From a virus (lineage: Duplodnaviria; Heunggongvirae; Uroviricota; Caudoviricetes): DNA of 41,642 nucleotides. Numbering within the stretch: position 1 is the stretch's first letter; every line of letters starts with the position of its first letter. The translations under genes were made by a program, and so were the position numbers. Below are positions 7,285 to 38,384 of the stretch, one piece after another. The notes under the pieces were generated by a model. The model had not been told where the DNA came from, did no database searches, and worked only from the letters and a program-made list of their open reading frames with translations. The stretch lies in IMG/VR virus record IMGVR_UViG_2541047897_000010, one strand, 5' to 3'.

Positions 7285-8117
7285 ACAGTTTAACGGCAAA
7301 TAACCGTTTGTCGCAACAGCTGGTGGTCAGCGTCGCTGAACACCTGTTGTTACGGCATGAATGCAGATTACCAAATCACCTGGCTGTAAGTAACCACAGA
7401 GAACTTTACCTGACTGTGGGGGGCGAGTTGTGCAGGAACTTAACCGCTGGTTTCGTGACGGAAGAGGGCTTTATGTCCATGTTATTCGTTGGGAGCCAGA
7501 AACACAGCGCGTTATCTATCTTCGCAAAGACTACCCGCATGAGTGCTTTAGTCCTTTGTGGAAATTCAGGCGTGATTTTGTTGAGTGTGAAGGACCACCA
7601 GCACATTGATTCTGCCATTCCGGGACGTTACACTGTTCAGGCACCTTATAAAGCGGGTGACGGGATTGGCGTCCTGGAAATGTTATCGGCGATATATGAC
7701 GCGCCAGCGTCTTTTTTATCGTCTGTGTCTGTGCACACCCAAATTATGGTGGGCTGGACGGGGGCACCGAAAGGTGCGCCGGTTTCCGATAACGCCGGTT
7801 ACGCCAACCCCGTTCAGTTCACCACCAGCGAAATTGGCGTTTCCGGTGGTGAAGGTAATTCACTGTTATCGGAGGCTGCCATCATGGCTACTGTCCCAGC
7901 CCTCACTCGTCTGAATGATGAAGACTTACATAAACTCAGTTATGTAACAACTGCACTACGTGCTCTGCGCAAGGTAACTCTTTCGGATCCGCAGGCGCAT
8001 CAGGTTTTGGTAGAAACCCTTCTTAACTTGCAGGCTGAACGTATTCGTCTGGCGGATAAGGCTAATTTTCATATTCACCGTCTCCTGAATATCAGCGGAG
8101 GGCATCGTCATGCTTAA
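7281..8117 (+). CDS. Hypothetical early protein, no family recognised
   Basis: 278-aa ORF with ATGA stop/start overlap with upstream gene. Confidence 0.4.
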   Translation: MNSLTANNRLSQQLVVSVAEHLLLRHECRLPNHLAVSNHRELYLTVGGELCRNLTAGFVTEEGFMSMLFVGSQKHSALSIFAKTTRMSALVLCGNSGVILLSVKDHQHIDSAIPGRYTVQAPYKAGDGIGVLEMLSAIYDAPASFLSSVSVHTQIMVGWTGAPKGAPVSDNAGYANPVQFTTSEIGVSGGEGNSLLSEAAIMATVPALTRLNDEDLHKLSYVTTALRALRKVTLSDPQAHQVLVETLLNLQAERIRLADKANFHIHRLLNISGGHRHA

Positions 8118-12853: not shown

Positions 12854-13606
12854 ATGAACCTTGAAGCCTTACCAAAATATTACTCCCCAAAATCTCCAAA
12901 ACTGAGCGATGACGCACCGGCGACAGGCTCGGGTGGTTTAACGATTACGGATGTGATGGCTGCGCAGGGGATGGTGCAGTCGAAAGCACCGCTTGGGTTT
13001 GCCTTATTTCTGGCAAAAGTTGGTGTTCAGGATCCTCAGTTTGCGATTGAAGGTCTGCTCAATTACGCGATGGCACTGGATAACCCGACATTGAACAAAT
13101 TGAGTGAAGAAACCCGGTTACAGATCATCCCTTACCTTGTGAATTTTGCCTTTGCTGATTATTCCAGGTCTGCGGCAAGTAAGGCTCGCTGTGGGCATTG
13201 TGCTGGTACTGGATTTCATAATGTATTGCGCGAAGTGGTGAAACACTACAGACGCGGGGAATCTGTTATCAAGGAAGAGTGGGTGAAGGAACTATGTCAG
13301 CATTGCCATGGTAAGGGAGAAGTCAGCACAGCGTGCAGAGGGTGTAAGGGTAAAGGTATTGTCCTGGATGAAAAAAGGACCCGGCTTCATGGCACGCCTG
13401 TTTATAAGATTTGTGGGCGTTGCAATGGAAACCGGTTTAGCCGTTTACCAACCACACTGGCGCGGCATCATGTCCAGAAGCTGGTACCAGACCTGACGGA
13501 TTATCAGTGGTACAAAGGATATGCAGATGTCATTGATAAACTGGTGACAAAGTGCTGGCAGGAAGAAGCATATGCTGAGGCGCAATTAAGAAAAGTGACG
13601 AGATAA
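12854..13606 (+). CDS. Late-gene antiterminator Q-like protein
   Basis: Multiple CxxC/HxxC zinc-binding pairs (CGHCAGTG, CQHCHGKG, CRGCKGKG, CGRCNGN); position before lysis genes and PR'-like promoter/terminator. Confidence 0.6.
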   Translation: MNLEALPKYYSPKSPKLSDDAPATGSGGLTITDVMAAQGMVQSKAPLGFALFLAKVGVQDPQFAIEGLLNYAMALDNPTLNKLSEETRLQIIPYLVNFAFADYSRSAASKARCGHCAGTGFHNVLREVVKHYRRGESVIKEEWVKELCQHCHGKGEVSTACRGCKGKGIVLDEKRTRLHGTPVYKICGRCNGNRFSRLPTTLARHHVQKLVPDLTDYQWYKGYADVIDKLVTKCWQEEAYAEAQLRKVTR

Positions 13607-15997: not shown

Positions 15998-16318
15998 ATG
16001 AAAGATGGTATCTATTTTGTTGTTTTCAGAAGCAATCAACGTGATTTTGGTAATGGTACCGTAGTTGTCAAAAACAATGCAGTAAACGGCGGAGATTTTG
16101 GTTTTACGTATCAGGGAAAAATTGACGGTAGCCAACTTATTCTGCGCGTATCGCAGCATGATTTAAATGTCACCTCGGTTTTCCCTGGGGTAAAGAACTT
16201 TGAATTGAGTCTTTCTTTGCAGGAACGAGGACGTGATTACCTGTTAAATGGATCTGTGGTCGGAATGCCTCAGATGCAGATTTCAATTAGTGCAAAATAC
16301 ATTGGTGATCTGATTTAG
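15998..16318 (+). CDS. Moron-encoded hypothetical protein (predicted beta-rich, no signal peptide)
   Basis: 106-aa ORF in sharply AT-rich insert between lysis cassette and HNH/terminase, followed by its own terminator. Confidence 0.5.
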   Translation: MKDGIYFVVFRSNQRDFGNGTVVVKNNAVNGGDFGFTYQGKIDGSQLILRVSQHDLNVTSVFPGVKNFELSLSLQERGRDYLLNGSVVGMPQMQISISAKYIGDLI

Positions 16319-26707: not shown

Positions 26708-26856
26708 CGGCTGAATACCTCACTGATCGCTTCTTTGACTGCGCCAGTTACTGGCGCATTAATCCTTTCGAATTGCTGAATATGCCGATCAGTGAAATTC
26801 CCTTACTGGTCAGTCAGGCAAACAGGATAGAGCAGGAGAAACGCACACATGGCTGA
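26438..26856 (+). CDS. Tail assembly chaperone, -1 programmed frameshift fusion product (slip at 26689-26695)
   Basis: Slippery heptamer T_TTT_TTC in zero frame; -1 frame ORF continues to 26856, overlapping tape measure start. Confidence 0.5.
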
Positions 26857-28681
26857 ATTTGAGCTTAAGGCGTTGATCACCGGTGTCGACAGGCTTTCTC
26901 CCGCGCTGTCGAAAATGCAAAAGAAAATCCGGGGATTTAAACGCCAGGCGGAAGAAGCGTCACAGGGTGGGCTGGCGCTTGGTGGCGGACTGGCAGCGGG
27001 TCTGACGCTTTCCCTGAAATCTTATGCCGATCAGGAAAACGCCGCCACCGGGCTGAAAGTCGCTATGATGGATGCGAACGGCGAGATTGGAAAGCGCTTT
27101 CAGGACATCAATAAACTGGCTATTGGCCTGGGTAACCAGCTACCCGGTACAACGGCTGATTTCCAGAACATGATGCAGATGCTGGTGCGTCAGGGGATCC
27201 CGGCAGAAAACATTCTGAGTGGTGTGGGTAAAGCGACAGCTTATCTTGCGGTACAACTGAAAAAAACACCGGAAGCGGCTGCTGAGTTTGCTGCAAAGAT
27301 GCAGGATGCTACCGGAACGGCGTCAGAAGACATGATGGGGCTGTTCGACACTATCCAGAAGGCGTTTTATCTGGGCGTGGACGATACCAACATGTTGTCC
27401 TTCTTCACTAAAACCAGCTCTGTTCTGAAGATGGTGAACAAGGACGGTCTTCAGGCTGCACAGAGCCTTGCCCCCATCAGCGTCATGATGGATCAGATGG
27501 GGATGAACGGGGAGTCGGCAGGTAACGCCCTGCGAAAAGTTATCCAGTCCGGATTAAGCGTTAAGAAAATCAGGGACGTCAATAAAATCATGGCCCGCCA
27601 GAAACTCGGGGTACAGCTCGATTTTACTGACGGCAAAGGGAGTTTTGGCGGTCTTGATAACATGTTCAGGCAACTGGCAAAGCTGCGAAAACTGACCGAC
27701 GTTAAACGAACTGGTGTACTTAAGGCAATATTTGGTGATGATGCCGAAACCCTTCAGGTGGTCAATGCACTAATCGATAAAGGAAAGGATGGCTACGATC
27801 AGATCCAGCAGAAGATGAATAAACAGGCCAGCCTGAATAAACGTGTTCAGGCACAGCTTGGTACGCTGTCCAACCTGTGGGAGGCAATGACAGGGACCGC
27901 AACTAACGGCCTTGCGGCTATTGGCGGCGCATTTTCTGGTGACGCTAAAAATATCACGCAATGGCTGGGGGAGTTGGGGGAGAAATTCACGAAGTTTGCG
28001 GATGAAAATCCCCGGGTTATTCGCGGCGTCGTCGGGCTTGCTGCTGGTCTTGCGATTCTGAAACTGGGATTGATGGGCGTTGGCGGTGCCATCAGTATTG
28101 TCAGCAGGATCATGTCGATGACGCCGATTGGCATGATTGCGACGGCGATAGCCCTGGCTGCGGGATTAATTATCACTAACTGGGATGTTGTCGGACCTTA
28201 TTTTAAGAAACTCTGGGAAACCATTGGTCCTTATTTTGAGGCTGGCTGGGAACTCCTTAAGAAAGTTTTTGCCTGGTCGCCGCTGGGGATGGTGATCAAT
28301 AACTGGGGGCCGGTTGTTAAGTGGTTTCAGGATATGTGGGACAAGCTGAAGCCAATTATTGAGTGGTTTACCGACAGTTCCGGTGACACGGTCGATGCCA
28401 TTAACTCTGCGCAGTGGGGCGCGGGTGCTTATGATGCTTATGGGACGGGAATACCGGCGCGGGGATACACACCTTATCCGGCGGTAGATCCGGCTCAGTC
28501 AAACAACGCCTCCGGTGCCACAGGCCCGAATCCCTTCATGATTAACAAAGCTTCTGCGCCAAAAGTTGATGGTGAGATCAAGGTCTCTTTTATGAATTCG
28601 CCTCCGGGTATGCGGGTTATGGAAACGCGATCCAGCGGTTTTGATGTCAGCCATGATGTTGGCTATACGCGGTTCAGGTAG
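26849..28681 (+). CDS. Tail tape measure protein
   Basis: 610 aa, helical/Gly-Ala-rich, follows chaperone. Confidence 0.8.
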   Translation: MAEFELKALITGVDRLSPALSKMQKKIRGFKRQAEEASQGGLALGGGLAAGLTLSLKSYADQENAATGLKVAMMDANGEIGKRFQDINKLAIGLGNQLPGTTADFQNMMQMLVRQGIPAENILSGVGKATAYLAVQLKKTPEAAAEFAAKMQDATGTASEDMMGLFDTIQKAFYLGVDDTNMLSFFTKTSSVLKMVNKDGLQAAQSLAPISVMMDQMGMNGESAGNALRKVIQSGLSVKKIRDVNKIMARQKLGVQLDFTDGKGSFGGLDNMFRQLAKLRKLTDVKRTGVLKAIFGDDAETLQVVNALIDKGKDGYDQIQQKMNKQASLNKRVQAQLGTLSNLWEAMTGTATNGLAAIGGAFSGDAKNITQWLGELGEKFTKFADENPRVIRGVVGLAAGLAILKLGLMGVGGAISIVSRIMSMTPIGMIATAIALAAGLIITNWDVVGPYFKKLWETIGPYFEAGWELLKKVFAWSPLGMVINNWGPVVKWFQDMWDKLKPIIEWFTDSSGDTVDAINSAQWGAGAYDAYGTGIPARGYTPYPAVDPAQSNNASGATGPNPFMINKASAPKVDGEIKVSFMNSPPGMRVMETRSSGFDVSHDVGYTRFR

Positions 28682-28780
28682 TGTACAAAATGATTAATGT
28701 GTTTTTGTCTGGCATAATTTGGGTTTTCAGCTTTAAGTAGTTAATATAATCATTCCTTACAAATGATTGAAGGGATGATT

Positions 28781-29275
28781 ATGCGTATCTTTGTTTTTTT
28801 TATATCTGCACTTTTATCTTTTAACTTGGCTGCGGAAGAGTGTAAGTTCAGCTTTAATGAGTCAGAATTAATCTCTTCTATAGGTATTGCACCAGTTAAG
28901 CAAGAGATAATAAAGGACGAAGGAATAACTAAGCGGCAATATGAATTCAGAAGAGAATTATCTTCTGAAGAAATGCTTAGTGATGACGCTGATGAAAAAT
29001 ATGAGCCGCAGTTTTATATATCTGTTTATAATCCATCATGCCCACAAAAGGTTATTGTTTGGTTTTTCAAAGACAATAAAAACACAATGGATTTAAGTAA
29101 TGAGGTCCTTGCTGGTAGAGCGTTCAAGTATTTAACTGGTGTTAATGAAAGTATTTTTGAAAATAAAATGAAAAAGTTTTTAAAGGTACAGTCATTTGAA
29201 TCTTTTGATGAAAGGACAGATTCTAAATTTATAAAGAGTGGTGATATTTATTCCATTGATGTTCAACTCAGATAG
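28781..29275 (+). CDS. Moron-encoded secreted protein with N-terminal signal peptide
   Basis: AT-rich insert; start MRIFVFFISALLSFNLAAEE (AGGGA SD); own TATAAT box (28745-28750) and downstream terminator. Confidence 0.5.
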   Translation: MRIFVFFISALLSFNLAAEECKFSFNESELISSIGIAPVKQEIIKDEGITKRQYEFRRELSSEEMLSDDADEKYEPQFYISVYNPSCPQKVIVWFFKDNKNTMDLSNEVLAGRAFKYLTGVNESIFENKMKKFLKVQSFESFDERTDSKFIKSGDIYSIDVQLR

Positions 29276-29294
29276 TAATTAAAAATATTAGGTT

Positions 29295-29350
29295 CCCGCC
29301 ACATCTTCTGCGATGTAAATAACTGACAAAGCAGATTTGGCGGGTTTTTT
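29295..29350 (+). terminator. Terminator-like structure after moron
   Basis: CCCGCCA ... TGGCGGG stem with internal ACATC/GATGT hairpin, followed by TTTTTT. Confidence 0.35.
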
Positions 29351-29365
29351 GTATCCGGAGTTTAT

Positions 29366-30694
29366 ATGACGTGGAAAGACAGGCTTCAGGATGCGTCATT
29401 TCGCGGCGTACCGTTTAAGGTTGAAGAAGAAAGTGCGGGAACCGGTCGCCGTGTGGAAACACACGAATATCCGAACCGCGACAAGCCCTATACCGAAGAT
29501 CTGGGAAAAGTCACTTTCCGCCCGTCCATCACAGCTTATGTGGTGGGAGATGACTGCTTTGACCAGCGCGATCGCCTGATTGACGCGCTGAATAAACCCG
29601 GTCCCGGCACGCTTGTCCACCCGACATATGGTGAGCTGAAAGTCTGTGTTGACGGGGAAGTTCGGGTCAGCACATCGAAAAGTGAAGGGCGTATTGTCCG
29701 CTTTGACCTGAAGTTTGTCGAAGCAGGAGAACTCTCTTACCCCACATCAGGTGCGGCGACGGCGCAGACGCTGATGTCATCCTGTTCTGCACTGGATGAC
29801 TGCATCAGTGACAGCTTCAGCGGTTTCAGTATCGATGGCGTGGCGGATTTCGTGCAGAACGACGTTATCGGTAATGCCAGCATAATGCTGGGGTATGTTT
29901 CTGATGCGATGAAAGTGGTGGATTCTGCCGTATCGGATGCCGCCAGGCTGTTGCAGGGGGATATCTCGGTACTTCTGCCGCCGCCATCGTCAGGCAAAAA
30001 TTTCGTTGAGCAGGTGCAGAAAATGTGGCGTACCGGGAAACGCCTTTATGGTAACGCCAGCGACCTGGTCACCATGATCAAAACGCTTTCCGGTGTCAGC
30101 CTCGGCAGCGATCTGCAACCGCGCGGCGTCTGGAAAACGGACAGTAAAACCACCGCCACGGCGACGCAGCAGCGTAACGTGGTTGCCAGCACCCTTCGTA
30201 CGACCGCAATCAGCGAAGCGGCGTATGCCGTCACCCGATTGCCTGCGCCAACAACTTCCGCGGTGATGCAGAATTCCGCAGTGGGGCAGGCAACAACACC
30301 CGCGCAGAGCACTGGCTGGCCTTCCGTCACGCATCCGGCACTGAACAATGCACCGGCGGTGAAAAACACGGTTGACCTGCCGACGTGGGAAGAACTGACT
30401 GACATTCGCGACACACTGAATACGGCAATTGATAAGGAGTTGTCCCGTACAACCAGCGATGCGCTGTTTCTGGCGCTGCGCCGGGTGAAAGCAGATCTGA
30501 ATGCGGATATCAACACGCGCCTTGAACAGTCTGCACGGATCATTCAGCGCACACCGGATGAGGTTTTACCCGCGCTGGTGCTGGCGGCGACCTGGTTTGA
30601 TAACGCGGCGCGTGACGCGGACATTATCCGGCGTAATGCCATTACGCATCCCGGCTTTGTGCCGGTGATCCCTCTGAAGGTGCCAGTGCAATGA
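29366..30694 (+). CDS. DNA circulation protein (Mu gpN-like)
   Basis: 442 aa, GGAG SD, position after tape measure. Confidence 0.65.
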   Translation: MTWKDRLQDASFRGVPFKVEEESAGTGRRVETHEYPNRDKPYTEDLGKVTFRPSITAYVVGDDCFDQRDRLIDALNKPGPGTLVHPTYGELKVCVDGEVRVSTSKSEGRIVRFDLKFVEAGELSYPTSGAATAQTLMSSCSALDDCISDSFSGFSIDGVADFVQNDVIGNASIMLGYVSDAMKVVDSAVSDAARLLQGDISVLLPPPSSGKNFVEQVQKMWRTGKRLYGNASDLVTMIKTLSGVSLGSDLQPRGVWKTDSKTTATATQQRNVVASTLRTTAISEAAYAVTRLPAPTTSAVMQNSAVGQATTPAQSTGWPSVTHPALNNAPAVKNTVDLPTWEELTDIRDTLNTAIDKELSRTTSDALFLALRRVKADLNADINTRLEQSARIIQRTPDEVLPALVLAATWFDNAARDADIIRRNAITHPGFVPVIPLKVPVQ

Positions 30695-34366: not shown

Positions 34367-35491
34367 ATGCATCGTATAGACACGAAAACCGCGCAGAAGG
34401 ATAAGTTCGGCGCGGGTAAGAACGGTTTTACCCGTGGTAACCCCCAGACTGGCACGCCTGCCACCGATCTGGATGATGACTACTTTGACATGTTGCAGGA
34501 AGAACTTTGTAGCGTTGTTGAGGCATCCGGTGCCAGTCTGGAGAAGGCGCGGCACGACCAGCTGCTTACCGCGCTTCGTGCGCTGCTGTTAAGCCGCAAG
34601 AATCCGTTTGGCGATATCAAATCGGATGGCACTGTGCAAACGGCTCTCGAAAACCTTGGTTTGGGAACACTGCAATCATCCTTCACAGATAAAACGGGTA
34701 AAATTGCATTAAATGGCGGGTGGGGGCTTGGGATAAAGGCAGACCAGGTAAGCGGAACTATGGCGGCGTTGGACGTCAGTCGCTTTGATTATTTTGCCCC
34801 TGCAGATAATATCGGTCCTTATCCTGGGCAGTGGGCTGGTGGTATTTCATTTGCTAACTCAGGTTCAACCGGGTGGCAAATCTGCGGTGCGTCTCTCGGT
34901 TCCATTCCTGACTTTAGTGTGAGGATAAAAACGAATCAGACTGCATTTTCTGACTGGTATAAGTTGTACCACACAGGATTTAAACCCACTCCCGCTGATA
35001 TAAACGCTATCCAACGTGATGCGTGTGATGTGGCTGGGTTTATTTCCAACAATCAACAAGACCCATACATGAGGCATTCGGCATCGAATAACATCATACA
35101 GCTTGCCACTCGTCAGTTTGTTTCTCAATCTATTTCCAGCCTCAGTCTGGGTACAGCAGCAACAAAAAATGTGGGTACAGGTGCTGGACAAATACCGGAT
35201 ATGTCTAGTTTTACGAGTGGTACCGGCTGGGCATCTTTACCGGGTGGGACTATTATCCAGTGGGGTATTGCAGCCTCTGGTCAAATTGGCGATCCGCAGA
35301 CAATCAATTTCCCCGTACCTTTTACAAATTACAGTACAGTTCAGCTTGTTGCTTCATATGATAACGCTGGCGCTTCAGGTGCACCTTATAGCTTTGCAGC
35401 TCAACCTATCAGTAATACCCAGTTCAAATTATTAAATTCAACATCATCATCAGCCGTTATTTACGCTCGGTGGATTGCGATCGGGAGATAA
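34367..35491 (+). CDS. Tail fibre protein (constant N-terminus joined to currently expressed variable C-terminus)
   Basis: Conserved N-terminus [22 protein letters not shown]...; crossover site inside gene; C-terminal part AT-richer. Confidence 0.75.
34645..34670. repeat. Left inversion crossover site (gix/hix-like)
   Basis: TCTCGAAAACCTTGGTTTGGGAACAC; inverted copy at 37024-37049. Confidence 0.55.
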
Positions 35492-35496
35492 TTAGA

Positions 35497-35940
35497 ATGA
35501 ATAAATATTTTTATGATGTATCTACAAATGCTTTCTATCCGATAGCTATGAAGGAAATTTATGAATCAAATGGAATTAATTTTGACAATGCTAAGGAGGT
35601 TGATGAAAAACTATTTATTGAGTATTCAGGCGAACCACCGAAAGGGAAAATCCGCATTGCTGGTGAAGATGGTTTTCCTGCCTGGGGTGATATTCCGCCG
35701 CCAACGCACGATAAACTTGTTGCAGCAACTGAAGCACAAAAACAACTGCTAATCGACCAGGCTAACGAGTACATGAACAGCAAGCAATGGCCGGGAAAAG
35801 CTGCAATGGGACGGCTGAAAGATGCCGAAAAGGTACAGTATAACGCGTGGCTGGATTACCTGGACGCACTGGAGCTGGTTGATCCCTCCAGTGCTCCAGA
35901 TATTGAATGGCCTACGCCTCCGGCAGTTCAGGCCAGATGA
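35497..35940 (+). CDS. Tail fibre assembly protein (Tfa), expressed orientation
   Basis: ATG 35497; C-terminal conserved Tfa-like region (...YNAWLDYLDALELVD...). Confidence 0.65.
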   Translation: MNKYFYDVSTNAFYPIAMKEIYESNGINFDNAKEVDEKLFIEYSGEPPKGKIRIAGEDGFPAWGDIPPPTHDKLVAATEAQKQLLIDQANEYMNSKQWPGKAAMGRLKDAEKVQYNAWLDYLDALELVDPSSAPDIEWPTPPAVQAR

Positions 35941-36505
35941 CATTCGGCGCGGTGCTGGTATCTGTTGCCGTCACCGCGTCAATGTAATCCAGCACAGCGT
36001 TAAGCCGGGTTGTTTCTGCCTGCATCAGCTTCCGTCCGGCCTGTGATTTCAGTTGAATCAGACTGATGGAAGCCATTGCAGCATCAATCAGCGACTGGCG
36101 CTGTGCTTCTGCCGCTTCTACTGCGGCGCTATGCTGTGCCTCGGTATCCGTCACCCATTTCTCACCATCCCATTTATCGTATGGCGTTAACGGTGAAAGC
36201 GTGACATAACCGTCTTTGATGGCACCGATATAATCCACTGTAACAGCTGCGCCATTTTCAGTTGAGTAAACGGTCTCATTGCGATGGTCTTCTTCATGGC
36301 TCCATCCCTTACCCGTAAATACTGCCACTTTTCCCGGAATGTTTTCGCCCGGGTCAATACCAGTGGAACAGGCGGGTATACTTACGCCAGTATTAATATA
36401 TTCATCAGACCAGCCGGTATATTCATACGTTACTGCATTATAATAAAAACAACGCATATCGCCCGGCACTGTAGCCAGCCCATTTTCATCAAAAACAGGT
36501 TTCAT
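35912..36505 (-). CDS. Alternative tail fibre assembly protein (Tfa prime), silent orientation
   Basis: 197 aa on opposite strand; C-terminal region (...LNAVLDYIDAVTATD...) parallels Tfa. Confidence 0.6.
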   Translation of the reverse strand: MKPVFDENGLATVPGDMRCFYYNAVTYEYTGWSDEYINTGVSIPACSTGIDPGENIPGKVAVFTGKGWSHEEDHRNETVYSTENGAAVTVDYIGAIKDGYVTLSPLTPYDKWDGEKWVTDTEAQHSAAVEAAEAQRQSLIDAAMASISLIQLKSQAGRKLMQAETTRLNAVLDYIDAVTATDTSTAPNVIWPELPEA

Positions 36506-37077
36506 TATTTAGCCCTCACCAGAAAGTTAAATGCAATATTTCGTGGACGGGTTTCTGTACCTACATGTCCACTAATTTCACCATAACGTTTAACACTACG
36601 AGAGCTAAGAGCTCGTAGTGAGGAAGGCACCTTAAGACCGGGTTCGTCCGTTTTAACTATTCCCCCGTCACCATATGTAGCCAGTATTCCTGGGTTTACT
36701 CCTTCCCGTGCACTTCCTGCAGCAAGCCCGTCCCCCGTCCACAATTCCATATTGTGTGCATGATCCATAATTGTGTGTGATTGCCCTGAAAGTAGGGTAC
36801 GTCCGACATCAATCCCGCGCCCATCATCCCAGATACGAATGAAATCACCCCGTGCGTCAGGTAATGCTAGCGCCGGAAACACTTTCGCCAGCACAGGGTA
36901 ATCAGTGGCAGAGAATTTCGCGCCGTTGAACTTCAAAAACACCATACTGGACCAACTGTCGATTACAGTATTTGGCATTGCGGCGGACGGCCAGAAGAAC
37001 GGAACGCCAATAGCTGGAGCACCTTCTCCCAAACCAACGTTTAAGAAAATGCAGAGATTATGGCTAACTGGCATCAT
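36505..37077 (-). CDS. Alternative tail-fibre C-terminal coding segment (promoterless; fused to constant N-terminus after inversion)
   Basis: Reverse ORF whose N-terminal codons (..NVGLGEG..) are encoded by the right crossover site, mirroring ENLGLGT at the left site. Confidence 0.5.
   Translation of the reverse strand: MMPVSHNLCIFLNVGLGEGAPAIGVPFFWPSAAMPNTVIDSWSSMVFLKFNGAKFSATDYPVLAKVFPALALPDARGDFIRIWDDGRGIDVGRTLLSGQSHTIMDHAHNMELWTGDGLAAGSAREGVNPGILATYGDGGIVKTDEPGLKVPSSLRALSSRSVKRYGEISGHVGTETRPRNIAFNFLVRAK
37024..37049. repeat. Right inversion crossover site (gix/hix-like)
   Basis: TTCTCCCAAACCAACGTTTAAGAAAA, reverse complement of left site with identical core CCCAAACCAA-G-TTT. Confidence 0.55.
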
Positions 37078-37104
37078 CCCCGGTTTTTACTCAGGGGAAT
37101 GCTC

Positions 37105-37662
37105 ATGCTTATTGGCTATGTCCGCGTATCAACAAATGACCAGAATACGGAATTGCAGCGTAATGCGCTGGAGTGTGCAGGATGTGAGCTGATTTTTGAA
37201 GATAAGATCAGCGGCACTAAGTCCGACCGACCGGGACTGAAAAAACTGCTCAGAACATTATCAGCAGGTGACACTCTGGTAGTCTGGAAACTGGACCGAC
37301 TGGGGCGCAGTATGCGGCATCTTGTCGTGCTGGTGGAGGAGTTGCGCGAACGTGGCGTTAATTTTCGCAGCCTGACGGATGCTATTGATACCAGCACACC
37401 AATGGGGCGCTTTTTCTTTCATGTGATGGGTGCCCTGGCTGAAATGGAGCGAGAGCTTATTGTCGAACGTACTAGGGCGGGCTTTGCCGCAGCACGACAA
37501 GAAGGGAGGAATGGTGGGCGAAAGCCAAAGCTGACAGTAGAACAATGGGAGCAGGCTGGCAGGTTGATTGAATCGGGAATATATCAGCAGCAAGTCGCAC
37601 TGATTTATGATCTGGGTATTTCAACGGTGTATAAAAAATTCCCTGTAGCAAGTAAACCATAA
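37105..37662 (+). CDS. pin: Serine DNA invertase (Gin/Pin/Hin family)
   Basis: N-terminus MLIGYVRVSTNDQNT...; near-collinear with recalled Gin/Pin sequences; C-terminal HTH. Confidence 0.85.
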   Translation: MLIGYVRVSTNDQNTELQRNALECAGCELIFEDKISGTKSDRPGLKKLLRTLSAGDTLVVWKLDRLGRSMRHLVVLVEELRERGVNFRSLTDAIDTSTPMGRFFFHVMGALAEMERELIVERTRAGFAAARQEGRNGGRKPKLTVEQWEQAGRLIESGIYQQQVALIYDLGISTVYKKFPVASKP

Positions 37663-37688: not shown

Positions 37689-38384
37689 TTATGCACTATT
37701 TTTAGGTCTTGTAACCCGAGGTGGGAGTTGTTTGGTTATATGTTCAAGTGATTTTTTGCCCAAGATAGTTCTTTGGACAAAACTTTCTATAGCTTCTAGC
37801 ATTTGTTCGAACTCACTTTTATTCGGGCTCCAACTGCGATGTGCGGCGGCGTTTCCTGCATCAATTACAGAAGATATAACGCATGCCTCAGTGTCGCCTA
37901 TGACTCCATCTTGTTTTAATTTTTCAACTTTTTCACCAAGCGGCAAACCGGGGTGAATTTGTAACAGTTCAGCAGTTCGATCAAAAATCGTCCGTAAACC
38001 GATGGACGAAAGGATGAAATGGTCAGAAGTATATGAAGAATACATTTCATTAAATATTTGAAAGAGCTGACGATCAACTGATTCAAGCTTGGATAACCAT
38101 ATCGGAGCTTGAAATGTTTCAGCGGCAGGATAGGTAGTGATCATATCTATAGGCGTTTCTACAAATTCACCATCACGATATTCGTGGGTAGTATGCTCAC
38201 TGAAGTGTTCGTTGTGGTGATAGAAGACAGTATCACAGCCATTGCATTGGAGTAGGTGATGGTAATGGTACCCATAAACTGGATATTGGGAATCCTCCCA
38301 GCTAGTGGTTAGCTTCCCATGCACAGTGCAGTTACGTAACCCACCGCATGTAGGGCAAAGAGCCTTGAGTATTTCCTTTTTCAT
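37689..38384 (-). CDS. Zinc-ribbon + DUF4145-like protein; candidate phage-defence/exclusion gene
   Basis: 231 aa in AT-rich island between invertase and dinI/int; N-terminal CPTC...CNGC; C-terminal helical domain with IDAGNAAAH motif recalled for DUF4145. Confidence 0.5.
   Translation of the reverse strand: MKKEILKALCPTCGGLRNCTVHGKLTTSWEDSQYPVYGYHYHHLLQCNGCDTVFYHHNEHFSEHTTHEYRDGEFVETPIDMITTYPAAETFQAPIWLSKLESVDRQLFQIFNEMYSSYTSDHFILSSIGLRTIFDRTAELLQIHPGLPLGEKVEKLKQDGVIGDTEACVISSVIDAGNAAAHRSWSPNKSEFEQMLEAIESFVQRTILGKKSLEHITKQLPPRVTRPKNSA

Follow-up and report, generated by a model that had tools for sequence, protein, structure and literature searches.

Results and discussion

A cargo gene between two tail genes

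This report concerns a small AT-rich cargo gene carried by a tailed virus, IMG/VR virus record IMGVR_UViG_2541047897_000010, whose 41,642 nucleotides (nt) of DNA are referred to in their entirety as the window. The window represents an SfV-like temperate Escherichia coli phage with HK97/lambda-type head genes, a Mu-type contractile tail, a gene for a Q antiterminator (12854-13606; PF03589) and, at its right end, an integrase gene. The cargo gene lies between the gene for the tail tape measure protein (TMP) and a DNA-circulation gene (gpN), a position that we call the TMP/gpN slot. In E. coli EC43, the 661-base region corresponding to 28690-29350 is 100% identical and belongs to a prophage integrated beside dusA; in this identical prophage, the Prokaryotic Genome Annotation Pipeline (PGAP) labels the TMP gene "phage tail tape measure protein". 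Coordinates are positions in the window, on the plus strand unless marked, and loci in other sequences carry L numbers. The features at the locus are as follows.

26849-28681 (+): TMP gene, 610 amino acids; PF10145 (PhageMin_Tail), expect value (E) 6e-27; left border of the slot
28682-28703 (+): short intergenic piece after the TMP stop codon, in which homology to the SfV intergenic region persists; left recombination junction
28704-29338 (+): insert relative to SfV and SfII, about 635 bp, fraction of G+C (GC) about 0.32; it replaces the middle of SfV's spacer of about 45 nt
28710-28718 (+): extended -10-like element TGgCATAAT, read from the sequence; alternative candidate promoter
28745-28750 (+): perfect TATAAT hexamer without a recognizable -35 element; candidate promoter, and also the start of the 5' arm of the leader hairpin
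28745-28783 (+): leader hairpin (inverted repeat I8), -16.5 kcal/mol
28781-29275 (+): cargo gene, encoding the 164-amino-acid precursor of a predicted periplasmic protein (WP_001219112.1; PHROG 8976)
28781-28834 (+): predicted signal peptide, residues 1-18, with predicted cleavage between LAA and EE
29295-29350 (+): intrinsic-terminator-like hairpin with an expanded 36-nt loop, ending in six T residues (T6); its 3' arm and T-run are common to phages with an empty slot
29366-30694 (+): DNA-circulation gene (Mu N/gp43-like, gpN), baseplate; PF07157 (DNA_circ_N), E 3e-34; right border of the slot

The insert is absent from close relatives

Both flanks are about 95% identical to those of phages SfV, SfII, SfI and SfIV, and the slot is empty in all four. 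The spacer between the TMP and gpN genes is about 45 nt long in these phages, versus about 680 nt in the window and in the isolated phage SKA5, which carries the insert at 99.4% identity. Local alignment with SfV (of 28560-28703, among other segments) places the junctions at about 28703 and 29339, with about 635 bp extra between them. Common to the window and SfV are the first 20 or so nt past the TMP stop codon and the 3' arm and T-run of the terminator. Among 5426 complete E. coli genomes, the flanking module was detected in 1094 and the insert in 84-85, and the carrier strains come from cattle, chicken, mouse and human hosts.

A preliminary description of the region, made from its sequence alone, reported an abrupt drop in GC content between the TMP and DNA-circulation genes, and this drop is readily confirmed. 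In 200-nt steps, GC goes from 0.48-0.55 in the TMP gene to 0.30-0.35 over 28700-29300 and then to 0.54. GC is 0.32 in the insert, versus 0.51-0.56 in the flanks; of all 400-nt bins in the 41.6-kb window, the lowest (0.323) falls here, and the low GC is kept in every homologous lineage examined. Inspection of inverted repeats at the locus found no transposon-like terminal repeats around the insert, and a search of 28500-29500 against Rfam returned nothing relevant.

By two criteria, absence from close relatives at the same site and deviating base composition, the insert is a moron. The preliminary description had proposed add-on cargo of this kind. That part holds, given the absence from SfV, SfII, SfI and SfIV at this site, the foreign composition and the export features described below; a casual, recent acquisition is not supported (see below). 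Phage add-on cargo genes are an already well-known kind of element, and it is the protein family and fold that are uncharacterized.

The product is predicted to be a soluble periplasmic protein

The mechanically defined open reading frame (ORF) spans 28763-29275 and encodes 170 amino acids. We prefer the ATG at 28781 (MRIF...) as the start, giving 164 amino acids, because PGAP uses it for WP_001219112.1 and all homologues begin there. The Shine-Dalgarno sequence AAGGGA, at 28770-28775, lies 5 nt before this start codon.

The precursor begins MR-IFVFFISALLSFNL-AA, followed by the predicted cleavage site and then EEC. The n-region is MR, and the hydrophobic core of 14 residues has a mean Kyte-Doolittle value of 2.32; the highest 11-residue mean is 2.67 at residues 3-13, and elsewhere such means do not exceed 1.47. 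On pattern inspection, the features of a Sec substrate cleaved by signal peptidase I are present, namely a charged n-region, an h-region, a small residue at -1 and no cysteine at +1. The signal-peptide prediction thus draws on hydrophobicity, the -1/-3 pattern, the family alignment and low predicted local distance difference test (pLDDT) values, and it agrees with the 164-residue ORF and classic signal peptide originally described. The pattern is kept in 12 of 13 full-length homologues, the exception being a homologue designated P0025 that is discussed below. Past the signal peptide, no transmembrane segment was detected. A lipobox ([LVI][ASTVI][GAS]C) was also sought and is lacking; in all homologues, the first cysteine follows A-E-E or A-E-Q. 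A lipoprotein like Cor, Llp or Bor is ruled out by this lack.

The predicted mature product has about 146 residues, a mass of 17 kDa, an isoelectric point of 4.9 and two cysteines, Cys21 and Cys87. Both are among the 39 invariant columns in an alignment of 13 homologues of 55-66% identity, and they probably form one disulfide in the periplasm. Taken together, these features lead us to predict a soluble periplasmic protein exported by the Sec pathway.

The AlphaFold model has a pLDDT of 88 and a predicted template modeling score of 0.79, with residues 1-20 disordered and of low pLDDT. No relative of solved structure was found for this model, its fold matches being in the noise range, and neither the protein alone nor a profile retrieved anything but noise from PDB sequences. 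The protein matches PHROG 8976 over its full length (E 2.8e-107, residues 1-164 against profile positions 1-164), a family with no assigned function, whereas Pfam, NCBIfam and PADLOC gave no match for the protein or for 15 family members. No literature was found under accession WP_001219112.1. The preliminary description did not recognize the protein family, and homology and structure searches added only PHROG 8976, with neither a function nor a solved fold.

In comparisons with alleles whose proteins are 94-95% identical, the ratio of nonsynonymous to synonymous substitution rates (dN/dS) is 0.15-0.18, and near-identical alleles differ almost exclusively at synonymous sites. The cargo gene is under purifying selection and is a functional gene. 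Because of these dN/dS values, the ORF is not the decayed pseudogene that had been considered as a way for the original proposal to fail.

A few IMG/VR copies of the cargo gene are damaged or altered. One (L065:3001-3460) has a frameshift with many in-frame stops, another (L067:3001-3489) has its start codon changed from ATG to AAG, and L051:3001-3483 is listed with them. The damage in L065 and L067 fits a dispensable gene.

The slot is a cargo hotspot

Between near-identical flanks in other E. coli genomes lie at least four other, unrelated cargo genes. The four listed here are all AT-rich (GC 0.34-0.42). The counts below are of complete genomes with a match anywhere in the genome, the slot position having been checked for sampled copies only.

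L017:788-1165: bPH_1 protein, 125 amino acids; 28 genomes
L018:764-1150 (-): tRNA_anti-like protein with an oligonucleotide/oligosaccharide-binding (OB) fold, PHROG 8545; 72 genomes
L019:824-1354: 176-amino-acid protein with an N-terminal membrane anchor, PHROG 5485; 178 genomes
L020:823-1500 and L021:763-1440: 225-amino-acid lipoprotein, PHROG 1353; 55 genomes

PHROG 8545 is annotated as "superinfection exclusion Sie-like", and no slot cargo matches a PADLOC model. The TMP/gpN slot is a cargo hotspot occupied mostly by genes for envelope proteins, and we found no description of it in the literature searched. It resembles the P2/P4-type defense and cargo hotspots of temperate phages (Rousset et al. 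2022), as these are cited in PMC11364771 and PMC13586616, in that unrelated cargo alternates at a fixed intergenic site among near-identical phages. The TMP/gpN slot differs in lying inside the tail operon of SfV-like phages, in holding one small gene per cargo, mostly for envelope proteins, and in the lack of PADLOC matches.

The position of the gene between those for the TMP and a baseplate protein, and its conserved synteny, might be taken to mean that the product is an overlooked structural or assembly component of the tail or baseplate. However, a cleavable signal peptide would take the protein out of the cytoplasm, where tails are assembled; the gene is absent from functional close relatives with 98-100% identity in the TMP C-terminus and gpN N-terminus; and unrelated genes fill the slot in other E. 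coli prophages. We consider a structural role extremely improbable and, on account of the signal peptide and the empty slots in working phages, reject a tail-structural identity.

The family is tied to the slot

The protein family is small. Homologues, down to 27-36% identity, occur in E. coli, Salmonella, Kosakonia, Atlantibacter, Kluyvera, Yersinia ruckeri and a few metagenomic contigs. A profile search of a set of 5.8 billion proteins did not extend the family past enterobacterial prophages, and a scan of genome collections contributed only Kluyvera and Atlantibacter as new genera.

In all of the approximately 60 phage loci retrieved, whose homologues range from 27% to 100% identity, the gene lies between the TMP and gpN genes. 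Moreover, the cargo protein and the TMP C-terminus diverge from the window to similar extents: identities are 59-63% versus 52-55%, 36-37% versus 33-36%, and 27% versus 34%, respectively. In the most distant homologues, the start codon is 15-17 nt from the TMP stop codon or follows it with no gap. Spacing of 15-17 nt leaves no room for a separate promoter outside the TMP gene in these homologues. Synteny that persists down to 27% identity, combined with co-divergence with the TMP C-terminus, argues that the gene is an old resident and not a recent random acquisition. From these comparisons, the cargo family is an ancient, position-locked resident of the tail module that has repeatedly been lost or replaced.

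The sole homologue outside a prophage is P0025 (33% identity; L070:5001-5471, in a Logan ERR5002088 contig), which is located in an enterobacterial chromosome. It lacks the signal peptide and Cys21 and lies 60 nt downstream of a gene for a pertactin-type autotransporter of 1079 amino acids and its terminator.

The proximity of P0025 to an autotransporter gene, and the many hosts from which carriers were obtained (cattle, chicken, mouse, human), would be compatible with a host-fitness or virulence conversion factor that has nothing to do with phages. Such a factor could inhibit lysozyme or an effector of type VI secretion or contact-dependent inhibition, or it could confer tolerance of envelope stress. 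One would expect a general fitness factor to turn up at various cargo sites and in various types of phage, whereas every homologue other than P0025 is restricted to a single slot in a single tail module. Also, the protein is not similar to known lysozyme inhibitors or immunity families, its fold matches are in the noise range, and P0025 itself, without signal peptide and Cys21, may be a remnant. We therefore regard this explanation as unlikely.

Promoter candidates and a terminator that belongs to the slot

The preliminary description noted a TATAAT box at 28745-28750 and a terminator-like structure ending in a T-run, and both can be read in the sequence. However, its further claim, that promoter, gene and terminator make up a self-contained unit, is not sustained, as the terminator is a fixture of the slot and the candidate promoter is a -10 hexamer without a -35 element. 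A scan for sigma-70 promoters over 28300-29700 gave 0 sites with an acceptable -35 element, versus 2.8 expected. By a rough estimate, about 0.2 TATAAT hexamers are expected in approximately 100 nt of DNA that is 70% A+T, so a lone occurrence is not rare.

At distant homologous loci, the conserved Gly-Tyr-Asn-Arg codons with which the TMP gene ends contain the hexamer TATAAT or TACAAT (L010:~7955-7965, L068:~2957-2967 and L014:~2132-2142). These hexamers lie about 36-41 nt before the cargo start codon, and that of L010 is just upstream of the anti-Shine-Dalgarno arm. Each is possibly a promoter embedded in TMP coding sequence.

The stem of the terminator-like hairpin pairs CCCGCCA (29295-29301) with TGGCGGG (29338-29344), followed by T6 at 29345-29350; its folding energy is -22.3 kcal/mol over 29270-29365 (z-score -2.1). 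A simple terminator scan missed this hairpin because its loop is 36 nt long. Hairpins with a T-run directly before gpN are found in L001 (SfV), L002 (SfII), L017, L019-L021, L004, L006, L010, L011 and L014. The terminator is thus present in the empty slots of SfV and SfII (that of SfII was annotated by its depositors); it also follows three of the four other types of cargo and recurs at the most distant homologous loci, and its typical form is CCCGC-TTCG-GCGGG-T7. The exception is the reverse-strand OB-fold cargo (L018), which has no terminator before gpN and instead has a GC-rich hairpin after the TMP stop codon. Since nearly every state of the slot, including the empty one, has the terminator, it belongs to the slot and is not specific to the cargo gene.

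In the window, the terminator looks like this slot hairpin, its loop having expanded. Its place inside a tail operon points either to a relic left by turnover of cargo or to attenuated transcription of the baseplate genes. The GC-rich stems may be the right-hand site at which recombination exchanges cargo.

A predicted leader hairpin masks the ribosome-binding site

The leader hairpin is the most original feature of the cassette and was overlooked in the preliminary description. Its 5' arm (28745-28758, UAUAAUCAUUCCUU) consists of the TATAAT box and the next eight bases, and its 3' arm (28770-28783, AAGGGAUGAUUAUG) holds the Shine-Dalgarno sequence and the AUG. The mean probability of being unpaired for positions -14 to +3, folded in a 75-nt context, is 0.04, whereas the median over 50 genes at the EC43 locus is 0.55. 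This makes the ribosome-binding site (RBS) of the cargo gene the most occluded one with a valid context among these genes, and none of 200 dinucleotide shuffles of the leader reached 0.04.

Of the 11 lineages tested, 8 show significant masking, which is achieved by different leader sequences. Shuffles that equalled the masking of the natural leader numbered 0/200 for L057 and L063, 2/200 for L006 and L052, 5/200 for L004, and 7/200 for L024 and L010; the lineages without masking are L068, L011 and L014. Between L059 and L063, there are several changes that preserve pairing. At the loci of the other cargo genes, masking is absent from three of the four tested and weak at the bPH locus (9/200). 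Masking as a property of the slot as a whole is rejected, the membrane-anchored and lipoprotein cargoes having open RBSs.

The consequences of the hairpin depend on where a transcript begins. In transcripts that read through from the TMP gene, or that start at TGgCATAAT (folded from 28725), the RBS stays buried (0.04). A start 6-9 nt past TATAAT (28756-28759) removes the 5' arm, and accessibility in the folded transcript becomes 0.36-0.43. A transcript from the gene's candidate TATAAT promoter is therefore predicted to be better translated, because a start at about 28757 drops the 5' arm of the hairpin. These folding results suggest that translation would occur mainly from the own-promoter transcript and not from Q-antiterminated late transcripts.

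This point bears on the idea that the gene is a late-expressed lytic accessory, co-transcribed with the tail genes, whose product is exported shortly before lysis and either blocks injection by sibling phages into the infected cell or debris or modulates the envelope for lysis. Location inside the Q-antiterminated late operon, strict synteny and co-divergence with tail genes, and distant homologues that follow the TMP stop codon by 15-17 nt or none with an accessible RBS are all as would be expected for such a gene. However, an RBS that is buried in read-through transcripts of the window lineage and of most lineages of at least 55% identity argues against efficient late translation. Additionally, the gene is dispensable for virion production, being absent from SfV, SfII, SfI and SfIV, and its persistent AT-richness and the -10 elements of its leader resemble those of separately transcribed cargo. 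Late lytic function is accordingly an improbable explanation, in our estimation.

A possible role in superinfection exclusion

The reading that we favor, to which as a whole chain we assign a probability of roughly 40%, is that the gene encodes a prophage-expressed periplasmic factor for superinfection exclusion that acts after adsorption. We favor it because the product is predicted to be exported to a compartment that contractile tails cross, because the family is tied to one tail module, because the hotspot has an envelope theme, with a "Sie-like" family among its cargo, and because HK97 gp15 provides a precedent. The proposed chain begins with a nonessential cargo cassette that occupies a recombination hotspot within the tail module, which is SfV-like and of the Mu contractile type. 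In the prophage, the weak TATAAT promoter at 28745-28750 would transcribe the gene, and the transcript from about 28757, without the 5' arm, would be translated; late-operon read-through dependent on the Q antiterminator would keep the hairpin and be translated poorly. The small, acidic, soluble protein would be exported by Sec, lose its 18-residue signal peptide and form the Cys21-Cys87 disulfide. It would then interfere with a step after adsorption, for example with the TMP or baseplate-hub proteins delivered into the periplasm by the contractile tail of an incoming phage.

The closest precedent, HK97 gp15, is a moron in a tail operon beside the TMP gene; the prophage expresses it, and the exclusion that it exerts depends on the infecting phage's tail region (PMC3594210, which summarizes the exclusion work of Juhala et al. 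2000 and Cumby et al. 2012). The cargo gene of the window shares with it the status of a single tail-operon add-on adjoining the TMP gene, absence in close relatives, deviant composition and an envelope-located product, which is predicted in the present case. HK97 gp15 differs in being a small inner-membrane protein related to YebO, encoded upstream of the TMP gene by a siphovirus, whereas the cargo product is predicted to be a soluble periplasmic protein of 146 residues without detectable homology to gp15, encoded downstream of the TMP gene by a contractile-tail phage.

Other phage-encoded exclusion proteins also act in the envelope. The P1 exclusion protein Sim is periplasmic, and the exclusion lipoprotein Ltp of Streptococcus phage TP-J34 targets the TMP. 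T5 Llp, phi80/N15 Cor and P22 SieA are exported to the envelope, where they block receptor use or DNA entry, and the cargo protein is likewise predicted to be exported. In contrast to Llp, Cor and Ltp, it has no lipobox, and unlike SieA, it has no transmembrane segment past the signal peptide; no similarity of sequence or fold was found. PMC3594210 describes Cor and SieA. As to PHROG 8976, the full-length match and the identical EC43 protein (WP_001219112.1) establish membership, which says nothing on mechanism.

Several other candidate identities were tried. Lysozyme inhibitors (Ivy/PliC/MliC), Bor/TraT/Lom and type VI secretion immunity proteins gave no sequence or fold signal and were rejected on that ground.

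A number of observations weigh against the exclusion reading. The protein has no homology at all to known exclusion proteins in sequence and fold searches, and the same searches found none to characterized superinfection-exclusion or anti-phage defense families. The argument from the hotspot is guilt by association. Within E. coli, presence of the gene is not tied to the TMP allele, as SfV has a TMP C-terminus that is 99% identical and an empty slot, and the co-divergence of cargo protein and TMP may be mere linkage. The promoter consists of a -10 hexamer alone, and a transcript from TGgCATAAT, the second -10-like element, would be fully masked. Finally, the most distant loci, L011 and L014, lack the leader and have an open RBS, which fits simple late co-expression with the tail genes.

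A more elaborate combination can also be formulated. In it, the -10 box doubles as the arm that sequesters the Shine-Dalgarno sequence and AUG, making a promoter-selective translational switch that is silent in late read-through; the protein is the first of a new family of periplasmic folds and keeps contractile-tail phages from delivering their genomes, by binding the TMP or hub proteins that they eject; and the slot is dedicated to exclusion at the level of the envelope. That all of these components are correct together is doubtful.

Other features of the window

Three further regions are distinctive. The first is an AT-rich ORF (GC about 0.40) of 106 amino acids at 15998-16318 (+), between the lysis region and the HNH/terminase genes. 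Its match to PF16518 (GrlR, the negative regulator of type III secretion of the locus of enterocyte effacement, LEE) is borderline at 26.7 bits, with a cutoff of 26.8, and the ORF may be another cargo gene.

The second, at 35470-37662, resembles the Mu G segment. Tail-fiber assembly genes at 35470-35940 (+) and 35912-36505 (-) are opposed, an ORF occupies 36505-37077 (-), and a resolvase-type invertase (37060-37662) adjoins the opposed genes. This arrangement suggests invertible switching of host range. The third is an AT-rich DUF4145 ORF of 231 amino acids at 37689-38384 (-), flanked by the invertase and integrase genes, where prophage cargo is typically found.

Conclusions

The tail module that contains the slot is present in about one in five complete E. 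coli genomes. The five slot cargo genes have matches in 28-178 genomes each, 418 in total, and none has a characterized function. Because the fold predicted for the protein analyzed here is confident but has no solved relative, a structure or a binding partner would add to what is known. The leader hairpin points to a mechanism, both simple and general, by which a cargo gene of a late operon could be translated in the lysogen only. If these cargo genes do act in exclusion at the level of the envelope, they would help to explain patterns of resistance among temperate coliphages and would offer new tools with which to study the poorly understood crossing of the periplasm by contractile-tail phages.
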